A stretch of 64,000 bases of DNA from assembly GCF_003018255.1 (NCBI RefSeq), contig NZ_CP027440.1; one strand, written 5' to 3'. The position numbers and the translations under genes are program-made. The notes beneath the pieces are model-generated. The model did no database searches and was not told the origin of the DNA. It saw only the letters and a list, made by a program, of their open reading frames with translations. Below, piece by piece: positions 58,256-62,293 of this stretch. The stretch comes from Escherichia coli. Its GTDB lineage: Bacteria > Pseudomonadota > Gammaproteobacteria > Enterobacterales > Enterobacteriaceae. The first letter of the stretch is position 1. Each line of letters opens with the position of its first letter.

Positions 58256-58815
58256 AAAAGTGGCTAGTGACGATTGCGGCACTGTGGCTGGCCGGATGCA
58301 GCTCCGGCGAAATTAATAAAAACTATTACCAGTTACCTGTGGTGCAGAGCGGTACACAAAGCACCGCCAGCCAGGGTAATCGCCTGTTATGGGTTGAGCA
58401 GGTCGCTGTTCCTGACTATCTGGCGGGGAATGGTGTGGTTTATCAAACCAGTGATGTGAAGTATGTGATTGCCAACAACAACCTGTGGGCCAGCCCGTTG
58501 GATCAACAGTTGCGCAACACTCTGGTTGCCAACCTGAGCACGCAACTGCCCGGCTGGGTGGTTGCCTCCCAGCCTCTGGGAAGCGCCCAGGATACGCTCA
58601 ATGTTACCGTAACGGAGTTTAACGGGCGATATGATGGCAAGGTCATTGTCAGTGGTGAGTGGCTGTTGAACCACCAGGGACAACTGATCAAACGTCCGTT
58701 CCGTCTGGAAGGGGTGCAAACTCAGGATGGTTACGATGAAATGGTTAAAGTGCTGGCCAGTGTCTGGAGTCAGGAAGCCGCTTCTATTGCGCAAGAGATA
58801 AAGCGTCTACCGTAA
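58252..58815 (+). CDS. pqiC: outer-membrane lipoprotein PqiC
   Basis: 187-aa ORF; lipobox LAGCSS; overlaps the pqiB stop by 4 nt; matches YmbA/PqiC. Confidence 0.94.
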   Translation: MKKWLVTIAALWLAGCSSGEINKNYYQLPVVQSGTQSTASQGNRLLWVEQVAVPDYLAGNGVVYQTSDVKYVIANNNLWASPLDQQLRNTLVANLSTQLPGWVVASQPLGSAQDTLNVTVTEFNGRYDGKVIVSGEWLLNHQGQLIKRPFRLEGVQTQDGYDEMVKVLASVWSQEAASIAQEIKRLP

Positions 58816-58837
58816 TCATAAAGATTTGTAAATATAA

Positions 58838-58871
58838 CCGTCTCCGGTATGTTGCCTGAGGCGGTTTTTTT
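58838..58871 (+). terminator. putative Rho-independent terminator of pqiABC
   Basis: Imperfect hairpin ccgtctccgg-tatgttg-cctgaggcgg followed by TTTTTTT. Confidence 0.5.
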
Positions 58872-59070
58872 GTTTCTAAGGTGCGGAAAAAGTTGTTCCT
58901 CTTCACATTTTTTGTACAACTGACATGCCCGTGTAGCTCACAAATATGACAGTGGCGTGAATTTTGCGCATTGACGGCAGTTATGATTCGCGGTATTGCT
59001 TAACTGTGATTGCACATTTAGTAATCACTGTTTTCTTTTCCACCAGAAACCAGTATGAGGGAAACGAGGC

Positions 59071-59238
59071 ATGAAGAGACAAAAACGAGATCGCCTGGAA
59101 CGGGCACATCAACGTGGTTATCAGGCCGGCATCGCCGGACGCTCAAAAGAAATGTGTCCCTATCAGACGCTGAATCAAAGGTCACAATGGCTGGGAGGCT
59201 GGCGAGAAGCCATGGCGGACAGGGTAGTAATGGCCTGA
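59071..59238 (+). CDS. rmf: ribosome modulation factor
   Basis: 55-aa ORF absent from the supplied track (too short); hand translation from ATG 59071 gives MKRQKRDRLERAHQRGYQAGIAGRSKEMCPYQTLNQRSQWLGGWREAMADRVVMA, matching Rmf; stop TGA at 59236-59238. Confidence 0.88.
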   Translation: MKRQKRDRLERAHQRGYQAGIAGRSKEMCPYQTLNQRSQWLGGWREAMADRVVMA

Positions 59239-59257
59239 TTCTGTCTCTTTAAAAAGA

Positions 59258-59285
59258 AACCTCCGCATTGCGGAGGTTTCGCCTT
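59258..59285. terminator. bidirectional terminator between rmf (+) and fabA (-)
   Basis: Perfect 9-bp stem aacctccgc-att-gcggaggtt with U-runs on both strands. Confidence 0.7.
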
Positions 59286-59307
59286 TTGATACTCTGTCTG
59301 ATTATAA

Positions 59308-59826
59308 TCAGAAGGCAGACGTATCCTGGAACAGACCGACTTTCAGGTCGCTGGCGGTATAGATCAGACGACCATCAACCAGCACTTCGCCATCTGCCAG
59401 ACCCATAATCAGACGTCGATTAACAATGCGTTTAAAGTGAATACGGTAGGTCACTTTTTTCGCTGTCGGCAGTACCTGACCGGTGAATTTCACTTCGCCA
59501 ACGCCCAGCGCGCGGCCTTTACCTTCGCCGCCCAGCCAGCCGAGGTAGAACCCTACCAGCTGCCACATTGCGTCCAGGCCCAGGCATCCCGGCATAACCG
59601 GATCGCCAATGAAGTGGCATCCGAAGAACCACAGATCCGGATTGATATCCAGTTCTGCTTCAACATACCCTTTGTCGAAGTTACCACCCGTTTCGGTCAT
59701 TTTGACCACACGGTCCATCATCAGCATGTTCGGTGCTGGCAATTGCGGGCCTTTAGCGCCAAACAGTTCACCGCGACCAGAGGCAAGAAGGTCTTCTTTT
59801 GTATAGGATTCGCGTTTATCTACCAT
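59308..59826 (-). CDS. fabA: 3-hydroxydecanoyl-ACP dehydratase/isomerase
   Basis: ORF 59308..60024 runs upstream into ycbZ; known N-terminus [14 protein letters not shown] at ATG 59824-59826 gives 172 aa. Confidence 0.96.
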
Positions 59827-59864
59827 GTTCTCTGTAAGCCTTATTTTATTGAAGCACGCAGGAT

Positions 59865-59900
59865 AGCTAACACGTGTACGCTGAACAAGTCCGATCAGTT
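59865..59900 (-). promoter_or_regulatory. fabA operator region: FabR palindrome and FadR site
   Basis: Minus-strand AGCGTACACGTGTTAGCT (FabR-type palindrome, plus 59865-59882) adjacent to AACTGATCGGACTTGTT (FadR-like, plus 59884-59900); the FadR site overlaps the last codons of ycbZ. Confidence 0.6.
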
Positions 59901-61655
59901 CGGAATAAACCAGTTCAGCCAACGCAATGGCCATGGAAAACGGTGACGTCCTTCCTGTTGCGATGCTTGCGCGATACGTTCCTGGATGGTTTGCATCAGC
60001 GTCGTTTGGCCTTCGCCATCCCACACCAGATTTAATAATAACGGCAGTGCGTCAGTCACATCGTCTACTGCCCAGATGGTGAATTTGCCTTCTTCTACCG
60101 CTTTCACCAGTTCACTGTGAAGACTTAAATGGCGAATGTTAGCAGTGGGGATAATGACACCTTGTTTCCCGGTTAACTCACGTTGCTGGCAAATAGCAAA
60201 GAAGCCTTCGATTTTCTCATTTAAACCACCGACCGGCTGGGCACGACCGAACTGATCGACTGAACCTGTGATAGCGATACTCTGATTCACCGGCACATCG
60301 GCGAGGGCGCTTATCAGGGCGCAGAGTTCAGCCATCGAGGCACTATCGCCATCCACTTCACTGTATGACTGCTCAAATGTCAGCGATGCTGAGAAGGGGA
60401 TCTGTTGCTCAAGCTGTAGTTCCGACATCAGGAACGCCTGCATGATCATCATCCCTTTCGCATGGATATTGCCGCCAAGCTCCGCTTTGCGTTCGATGTC
60501 GGTGAACTCACCATCGCCAATATGCACAACGCAGCTAATGCGAGAAGGTTCGCCAAAAGCGCGTGGATGACCCGGAAATTCAATGACCGAAAGGGCGTTA
60601 ATTTGCCCGATGCGTTCGCCTTCGGTTTCAATCAGGATTTGCTCCTGAAGAATCTCATCCTGCATGCGTTCAGCGAGGAAACCTTCACGCCATTCACGCT
60701 GCTGCAGCATTAAGTTTAGCTGCTCGCCGGAGAAGGTGTCGCCATCGCACAGGGAGGCGACCTCTTTACACTGGCGGAGGATCCACTGCGGGCTAAGCGG
60801 AAGTGTTTCTTGTTCACCGGTGTAGCGGGCTGCTTCGCGGATAAGTACCGGCCAGGCATCCGCTCCCGGTGCAGGTAAGTGATTATGTCTTGCGGTCAAT
60901 GTTACCCAGCGACACCACTGGCTTACTGACTCCGCATCGACAATCTGCAGAGTATCTTCAAATTCGCTATAAATAGCCTGCTCTGAAAGCTCTGGTTCCA
61001 TCTCCTGGAAATCAGCCAATGATTCGCGTTCGCCTACCAGAATGACTTTCAGCTTCAATGGCATCGAAGGCACAGAGACGGGGAGAGGGCGCGACTCATC
61101 AAACGCAACCCAGTCAAAACGCTCGCGGTTAACGATATTTTTCAGCCGCATCCACAGCAGAGGTTGCGCCAGCAGTGTACGCAAAGAGATGATGAGAATA
61201 CCGCCATTTGCCTGATGCACCAGACCTGGCTGCAGGGTAATGTCGCCATTAAACTGGCGCAGGCAGCCAAAGAGTTGTTCCGCTTCTACCCAGTCGGCAG
61301 CGACAACTTGCGTTAAAGTCGCAAAATTATCATCTGCACTCACTGCGTTACGTAAGCGGATGGTGTGCCCGGAAACCTCATAGTGACCGCCCACCAGTTG
61401 GCCTGCATCGCTTTGTAGCGCACGCGCGGCATCGGCAATAAGATTCAGATACTCAGACTCTTCCGGGGCCTTCGCCAGCATAAAAGAGGAGGATGCTCGC
61501 GTATGCAGCAACTGCTCCAGCGCAAATTGCAGTCGCGGTTGAGTATCACTGAATAAAGGATCGTTTTCGTCAATCAAATGTGGCTGAGCAAATATTTCCT
61601 GATAGCTATCGGTATCAGGAACCAGGTCACGCCATGCAAGTTTCGTAATGGTCAA
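59895..61655 (-). CDS. ycbZ: Lon-like protease (LonH family)
   Basis: 586-aa ORF; matches YcbZ. Confidence 0.92.
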
Positions 61656-61840
61656 AGTTGATGTTTTTTAGTCTGTTGTCAAAGCCGCGATTATACCGTA
61701 ACCGGCACTACAGCACACGTAGAAAGCACCGACAATACTCCTGGCATGGGCGTTAAAGCTCACAGGATGGAGATTCTTTTCTTCACTGGCCCAAAAAGCT
61801 GATATTCTGTAAAGAGTTACACGGTAACATTGAGATCGCT

Positions 61841-62293
61841 ATGAAATATCAACAACTTGAAAATCTTGAAAGCGGTTGGAAATGGAAGTATCTGGTGAAG
61901 AAGCACCGCGAAGGGGAGTTAATCACCCGTTACATAGAAGCCAGTGCCGCCCAGGAAGCCGTCGATGTGTTGCTCTCGCTGGAAAATGAACCCGTGCTGG
62001 TAAATGGCTGGATTGACAAGCATATGAATCCGGAACTGGTCAATCGCATGAAGCAAACCATTCGGGCCAGACGGAAGCGCCATTTTAATGCGGAACATCA
62101 GCATACGCGCAAAAAATCGATCGATCTGGAATTTATTGTCTGGCAACGTCTGGCTGGTCTTGCGCAGCGTCGCGGTAAAACGCTTTCTGAAACGATTGTT
62201 CAGCTGATTGAAGATGCGGAAAACAAAGAGAAATACGCGAATAAAATGTCTTCTTTGAAGCAGGATCTGCAGGCATTGCTGGGTAAGGAATAA
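61841..62293 (+). CDS. matP: macrodomain Ter organiser MatP
   Basis: 150-aa ORF; matches MatP (YcbG). Confidence 0.95.

Follow-up and report, generated by a model that had tools for sequence, protein, structure and literature searches.

Gene layout and operators at the ycbZ-fabA junction

The window, the whole 64-kb stretch of Escherichia coli DNA analyzed here, carries the gene order of K-12 around fabA, with pqiB, pqiC and rmf on one strand and fabA and ycbZ on the other, followed by matP and ompA. By annotation, the K-12 counterparts of fabA and ycbZ are b0954 and b0955, and several complete E. coli genomes match the interval 59250-60150 at 100% identity; it was found in 5425/5426. The ycbZ coding sequence occupies 61655..59895 on the minus strand, stop included, and encodes a 586-aa Lon-like protease / AAA family ATPase according to the open reading frame (ORF) list and the RefSeq annotation of identical E. 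coli DNA; its homologs carry the Pfam domains AAA_32 and Lon_C. The fabA coding sequence (59826..59308, minus strand, 172 aa; ORF list and annotation) begins after an intergenic region of 68 bp. Between rmf and fabA, which converge, a bidirectional terminator-like hairpin (59256..59280, both strands), with an 11-bp perfect stem, 7 GC pairs and T-runs on both strands, marks the end of the ycbZ-fabA unit. An Rfam search of 58500-62000 at a permissive E-value gave sub-threshold matches only (Phe_leader and Leu_leader), and these lay on this rmf/fabA hairpin. Two plus-strand ORFs, 59437-59946 (169 aa) and 59874-60035 (53 aa), run antisense to fabA, the intergenic region and ycbZ; both lack annotation in the E. 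coli records examined and are in all likelihood spurious.

On the minus strand the junction reads ...TGG TTT ATT CCG AAC TGA TCGGACTTGTT C AGCGTACACGTGTTAGCT ATCCTGCGTGCTTCAATAAAATAAGGCTTACAGAGAAC ATG. It holds the FadR operator AACTGATCGGACTTGTT, a 17-bp activator site of fabA (59900..59884, minus strand), and the FabR operator AGCGTACACGTGTTAGCT, an 18-bp near-palindrome (59882..59865, minus strand) that starts 1 bp after the FadR site, directly downstream as an earlier note on this DNA had placed it. The positions given there for a FadR-like site and for the ycbZ stop agree exactly with the sequence and the ORF list. That note had the FadR site covering the stop codon and the last codons of ycbZ. 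The stop is indeed covered (TGA, positions 4-6 of the 17-mer, 59895..59897, minus strand; ORF list and sequence), but the plural does not hold: a single sense codon, AAC for Asn586, lies under the site (positions 1-3, 59898..59900, minus strand), so that the overlap with the coding sequence is 6 bp in all. The same AAC is the A-site codon of a published ribosome stall, discussed below.

The identity of both operators, suggested in the earlier note, is borne out by published work. The segment 59909..59855 is letter-identical to an E. coli fabA probe used in EMSA with three FadR proteins, in whose primer table the FadR and FabR sites are marked, and the window sequences are identical to those marked sites (PMC4537474). 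Each operator occurs once in the 64-kb window with up to 3 mismatches allowed, where chance would give 0.09 occurrences of the FadR 17-mer and 0.01 of the FabR 18-mer. The FadR site of fabA is 15/17 identical to the fabB site and also 15/17 identical to the Shewanella fabA site. The FabR site fits the 18-bp palindrome AGCGTACACGTGTT(A/C)GCT directly downstream of the FadR site and matches the published motif AGCGTACACGTGTTCGCT (PMC4273635). FabR binding has been seen by ChIP-qPCR in Salmonella (PMC4804515), and FabR repression of fabA has been reported in a study that draws the gene with FadR, FabR and CpxR boxes and three start sites: S1, activated by FadR; S2, repressed by FabR; and S3, induced by acid and located 203 bp upstream of the ATG (PMC7083825).

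The FadR-dependent fabA promoter itself is too weak by consensus for anything but a by-eye assignment of its -35 and -10 elements. Our reading puts a putative core at 59888..59860 on the minus strand, with a -35-like TTGTTC (59888..59883), a 17-bp spacer formed by the FabR palindrome, and a -10-like TATCCT (59865..59860), together 7/12 consensus matches. Such a core would imply a start near 59853 and a FadR site at about -47..-31. The putative core falls below the threshold of our sigma-70 consensus scan, which found no promoter-like site in 59200-60400, as expected because the promoter is activator-dependent. The FadR site of fabA reportedly lies in the '-40 region' (Henry & Cronan 1991), and the placement at -47..-31 would fit this. 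The activator site and its adjacent FabR palindrome are likewise said to have been described by Henry & Cronan (1991/92), Zhang et al. (2002) and Feng & Cronan (2009, 2011).

We put at roughly 90% the probability that the element is the already-known composite operator of the E. coli fabA promoter, with FadR as activator and FabR as repressor, and with its edge inside ycbZ. The textbook fabA promoter is the same locus with the same sequence, and the element itself is no different; among the papers searched, none points out that the FadR site includes the stop codon of ycbZ. Since fabA starts only 68 bp from the co-directional ycbZ and an activator site would have to sit near -40, the edge of the FadR site falls 6 bp into ycbZ. 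The operators are already known, and the overlap is a small corollary of a textbook locus.

Conservation of the ycbZ end and the direction of constraint

We scanned one genome per species, kept the best 80 of 479 relatives, all Enterobacteriaceae from at least 20 genera, and analyzed 79 of these species-representative loci plus the window. Among these 80 sequences, ycbZ ends in AAC TGA at offset -3 of the 17-mer in 80/80, never in AAT; the FadR 17-mer is 17/17 identical in 76/80 and 16/17 in 4/80, and the FabR 18-mer is 18/18 identical in 72/80 and 17/18 in 8/80, counts that are not independent events because the species are phylogenetically related. The gap between ycbZ and fabA is 68-70 bp across the 79 loci and the window. 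When the sequences are anchored on the stop, column conservation is 0.53 at the base before the FadR site and 1.00 across AAC TGA TCGGA. At the protein level, residues 581-585 are hypervariable, among the most variable in YcbZ, and Asn586 is invariant, as in the endings WFIPN, GSGSN, WFNQN, RSASN and WLNRN.

A synonymous-site comparison covered the last 200 ycbZ codons, of which 150 were degenerate and conserved in amino acid. Codon 586 alone of these 150 has an invariant synonymous third base, the C of AAC (80/80); the mean frequency of the major third-base allele is 0.62 over the 150 codons, and other Asn codons range from 0.60 to 0.65. As read from the alignment, a coding base is under a non-coding constraint that starts exactly at the operator edge. 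For YcbZ this constraint is minimal, amounting to one residue and the stop. The proposal that the ycbZ C-terminus is constrained by fabA regulatory DNA is supported by these figures (AAC TGA in 80/80, 53% at the base upstream, the sole invariant synonymous base of 150). The comparison of ycbZ C-termini and operator across enterobacteria that had been suggested as a check likewise gave a near-invariant operator and a fixed AAC TGA next to hypervariable residues 581-585.

One locus, from Atlantibacter subterranea (L052, 3750-3900), was left out of the set. Here ycbZ still ends in AAC TGA, but the DNA directly after the stop is unrelated, and the 2 kb downstream contain neither fabA nor the remainder of the FadR/FabR module. 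The position of the unrelated DNA, right after the TGA, suggests an insertion or rearrangement exactly at the operator.

The fabB promoter of E. coli offers a comparison in which no gene end is involved. It has the same composite architecture and nearly the same sequence, GGCTGATCGGACTTGTT C GGCGTACAAGTGTACGCT, TGA included, and shares with fabA the core CTGATCGGACTTGTTC and the palindrome. [quoted passage not shown] The fabB operator core is present in 5425/5426 E. coli genomes. Because fabB has the same TGA without a coding sequence, the TGA is a property of the operator and not a requirement of ycbZ. Selection on the FadR site would then fix the C of the last codon and the TGA, with the constraint running from operator to gene. 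With this C and TGA fixed, YcbZ must end in an NNC codon followed by that TGA, and the residues just upstream of Asn586 would drift freely.

Wider taxa were reached via protein searches and exact-protein look-ups, and several of these loci are metagenome contigs. Synteny of matP-ycbZ-fabA is conserved out to Vibrio, with matP-ycbZ-fabA-rmf in V. nigripulchritudo. The terminal residue of YcbZ is Gly in Yersinia, Serratia and Budviciaceae, Ser in Mixta, Sodalis, Pantoea dispersa and Rouxiella, and Arg in most Pantoea sequences and in the truncated Dickeya and Pectobacterium proteins; a terminal Asn is also seen outside Enterobacteriaceae. The gene ends in GGC TGA TCGGACTTGTT C AGCGTACACGTGTTAGCT in Serratia, GGC TGA TCGGACTTGCT in Yersinia, GGC TGA TCGGACTTGTT in Budvicia, AGC TGA TCGGAGTTGTT in Mixta and AAC TGA TCCGACTTGTT T GGCGTACACCTGTTCACT in V. 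nigripulchritudo, and the FadR site is kept in all five groups. GGC, AGC or AAC before the same TGA across these taxa means that the ycbZ stop is the operator TGA and the last codon is RRC over a span of at least Enterobacterales to Vibrionaceae.

Positions 1-2 are GG at fabB and GG or AG in these other families, so FadR has no obvious need for AA there. The invariance of AA in 80/80 Enterobacteriaceae sequences is thus not explained by the operator alone. The residual constraint could lie at the level of protein or translation, or could be a site-specific requirement of the DNA.

Three cases combine a surviving FabR palindrome with decay of the left FadR half-site. Pantoea reads CGC TAA TCCGATTTGCT, with six mismatches to the FadR site and a TAA stop at unchanged position; Dickeya has a premature TAA 22 nt upstream, a remnant of the old tail, and TAA-CAGACTTGCT; and locus L085 ends in GAT TAA with a decayed FadR site. 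The stop is TGA wherever the FadR half-site is intact and is altered only where the half-site is lost. That the Pantoea stop stays in place despite its decayed half-site indicates that simple inheritance also holds the stop position. In a Dickeya aquatica-type locus (L091, 2899-3026), the premature TAA cuts YcbZ to ...PWFFR. The ancestral tail AAC TGG TTG GGC CAG AAG TAA persists there but no longer codes for protein; the FabR palindrome is retained, and the left half of the FadR site has decayed. YcbZ proteins of Pectobacterium, Affinibrenneria and Musicola are likewise truncated. A Yersinia locus (L087, 2934-3560) carries a 208-aa FabA call that starts inside the 3' end of ycbZ; the conserved ATG, 68 bp past the end of ycbZ, indicates that this call is probably over-extended at the N-terminus.

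These data also bear on whether the overlap might be a coincidence free of any constraint, with an arbitrary 17-mer boundary and true FadR contacts that start only after ycbZ has ended. Where exactly the FadR footprint begins and ends by experiment is taken here from secondary sources. The variation of positions 1-2 between sites (AA at fabA, GG at fabB) speaks for a coincidence, as would the strongest contacts in FadR-DNA crystal structures, which reportedly lie in the TGGT/ACCA-type core. However, the stop and the last base of codon 586 are part of the core C-TGA-TC... itself, this synonymous position is invariant in 80/80 against the background mean of 0.62, and changes of the stop are confined to loci with a decayed half-site. 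We regard coincidence as highly improbable. For the known operator reaching into ycbZ, the modest addition made here is that the 6-bp overlap is ancient and has left a signature, namely an invariant synonymous base and a stop altered only upon decay of the half-site.

The ribosome stall at Pro585 and Asn586

The last two sense codons of ycbZ are the site of a structurally characterized ribosome stall, in which Pro585 occupies the P site and Asn586 the A site (Fujita et al., PMC8848927). The stall was validated by reporter assays, tRNA-seq and cryo-EM (PDB 7CPJ) and is described as stronger than that of SecM; it needs both Pro585 and Asn586, with contributions from Trp579 and Leu580, is independent of the 3' UTR, and was reproduced in a purified in vitro system without FadR (PMC8848927). 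In the window the stall codons, CCG for Pro585 and AAC for Asn586, are 59898-59903 on the minus strand, and the FadR operator of fabA begins with the A-site codon as its positions 1-3. The coincidence of the overlap with this stall is a new observation, and none of the papers searched connects the stall to fabA. The stall paper never mentions fabA (PMC8848927), our literature search returned no paper with both ycbZ and FadR, and a search for ycbZ and fabA together returned an RNA-seq operon map and a queuosine omics paper only.

Conservation differs among the residues that determine the arrest: Trp579 and Leu580 are conserved and Pro585 is variable. Pro585 is found in 40/80 Enterobacteriaceae sequences from the scan described above; Klebsiella, Kosakonia, Serratia, Yersinia and Vibrio lack it.

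The stall raises the alternative that AAC TGA is invariant through selection on ycbZ translation, with stalling or termination at Pro585-Asn586-stop being functional and the operator merely tolerating it. The great strength of the stall and its need for both residues (PMC8848927) would agree with such selection, as would the AA of AAC, invariant in Enterobacteriaceae though the FadR-activated fabB has GG. Yet the essential Pro585 is present in only half of the 80 sequences and its codon varies, and the authors of the stall study themselves call Pro585 and Asn586 poorly conserved (PMC8848927). Moreover, Serratia, Yersinia and Mixta end YcbZ in Gly or Ser and still keep the C, the TGA and the rest of the site, and the identical core is conserved at fabB without any coding sequence. 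We consider selection on translation quite unlikely as the source of the invariance and favor constraint by the operator.

The last ycbZ codon is operator DNA, and this limits how the A-site codon of the stall can evolve, a possible reason for the stall. On the simplest view, the stall is a by-product confined to certain lineages, arising from an operator-fixed Asn codon and a drifting penultimate residue that happens to be Pro in lineages including Escherichia, Salmonella and Citrobacter. A stronger version, which would resemble lacI/O3 or an arrest peptide and is in our view quite unlikely, is that this stall, the strongest elongation stall known in E. coli, exists because the operator fixes AAC TGA. 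After the gain of Pro585 in the Escherichia/Salmonella/Citrobacter lineage, a ribosome stalled there and/or FadR bound at the stop might gate read-through ycbZ-fabA transcripts, coupling YcbZ and FabA to acyl-CoA or tRNA-Asn status.

Two further candidates were rejected. A roadblock by FadR as the cause of the stall is contradicted by the occurrence of the stall in a purified system without FadR; in addition, the 3' ends left by a polymerase halted in this way would fall upstream of codon 585. The second was a structured element coupling the two genes. In read-through RNA, CTGAAC of codons 580-581 can pair with GTTCAG from the FadR/FabR junction (59881-59919, minus strand), which yields a predicted hairpin GCUGAAC...GUUCAGC around the stop, but the fold of 59925..59815 is no better than those of shuffled sequences (z = -0.57). 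By the same measure, no significant RNA structure joins the stop region to the fabA ribosome-binding site (RBS).

SecM and TnaC resemble ycbZ in that a strong, sequence-specific stall occurs where an upstream ORF ends and in that this ORF shares its transcript with a downstream gene. Unlike in those systems, the stall residue Pro585 of ycbZ is not conserved, and about 55 nt, with no significant RNA structure, would separate the stalled ribosome from the fabA RBS.

Read-through into fabA and comparison with related loci

The earlier note also had ycbZ transcription reading through the fabA promoter in the same direction, and here it was right. The two genes share a strand, a terminator scan found no terminator-like site between them, an RNA-seq operon map lists a 'ycbZ-fabA operon' (PMC4161252), and the S3 start of fabA lies within ycbZ (PMC7083825). 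With no terminator between the genes, polymerase from ycbZ or from ycbZ-internal promoters crosses the operators into fabA. The outcome would be a ycbZ-fabA operon with a strong, regulated proximal fabA promoter.

Further control DNA of fabA lies inside ycbZ, at 60029..60113 on the minus strand (coordinates converted from PMC7083825). The acid-induced, CpxR-dependent S3 start, at -203 from the ATG, corresponds to about 60029, and the CpxR footprint at -287..-255 to about 60113..60081 (PMC7083825). The footprint contains GTGAAAGCGGTAGAA. Across 65 Enterobacteriaceae sequences, neither the CpxR box nor the S3 start coincided with synonymous-site conservation. ycbZ thus embeds more fabA control DNA than first noted.

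Promoters within an upstream gene are familiar from rpoS, whose promoter lies inside nlpD, and from ftsZ, with promoters inside ddlB and ftsA. Loci of the rpoS/nlpD type resemble ycbZ-fabA in that control DNA of the downstream gene lies in the upstream coding sequence and read-through is combined with a proximal regulated promoter, a description that also fits the CpxR box and S3 in ycbZ. The ycbZ-fabA operators differ from this type in that the overlap is just 6 bp and involves the stop codon itself.

A closer likeness is the 3' end of lacI with the lac operator O3, where, as in ycbZ, the 3' end of one gene holds an operator that serves the promoter of the next gene in the same direction (PMC3711431). 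This geometry is present here as a 6-bp operator overlap with the 3' end of co-directional ycbZ, stop included, and in both cases polymerase from the upstream gene must cross the bound regulator. At lacI/O3, a roadblock, truncated mRNA and SsrA tagging have been demonstrated (PMC3711431); for ycbZ, the literature search found no publication on regulator-dependent truncated transcripts or on tmRNA tagging of the protein. The regulators also differ in their relation to the genes, LacI being the product of the blocked gene itself (autoregulation) and FadR an activator of the downstream promoter.

By this analogy, the overlap might be functionally exploited, with FadR/FabR over the stop acting as a roadblock or gate for ycbZ polymerases, as LacI does at O3, and/or the stalled ribosome swaying the read-through mRNA, so that YcbZ and FabA would be tied to acyl-CoA. 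Co-transcription and internal promoters are documented (PMC4161252, PMC7083825), the architecture is that of lacI/O3 (PMC3711431), the stall falls exactly at the operator edge, and the arrangement is conserved from Vibrio to E. coli. Several findings point the other way: the stall is seen in vitro without FadR and is independent of the 3' UTR (PMC8848927), its determinant Pro585 is not conserved, and CpxR-driven induction of fabA works in a fadR fabR double mutant (PMC7083825). The region from the stop to the RBS has no significant RNA structure (z = -0.57) and no Rfam family match, and a compact intergenic region is explanation enough. We think exploitation of the overlap improbable, and keep to the known fabA operators whose edge lies within ycbZ.

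For the operator that reaches into ycbZ, the locus provides a natural case of a transcription factor site dictating the stop and last codon of a neighboring gene, over a span of at least Enterobacterales to Vibrionaceae. It also has a practical side: deletions of ycbZ, including Keio-type deletions, and C-terminal tags or fusions would remove or displace the fabA activator site. Phenotypes attributed to ycbZ, such as stop-codon read-through and hits in antibiotic evolution, warrant a check for effects on fabA.

A separate observation concerns queuosine, a modification of tRNA-Asn; accommodation of this tRNA in the A site has been proposed as the limiting step in the ycbZ stall. The stall and the response of YcbZ to queuosine loss have apparently never been linked in the literature; a tgt mutant, which lacks queuosine, has about 2-fold more YcbZ protein (PMC9508795).
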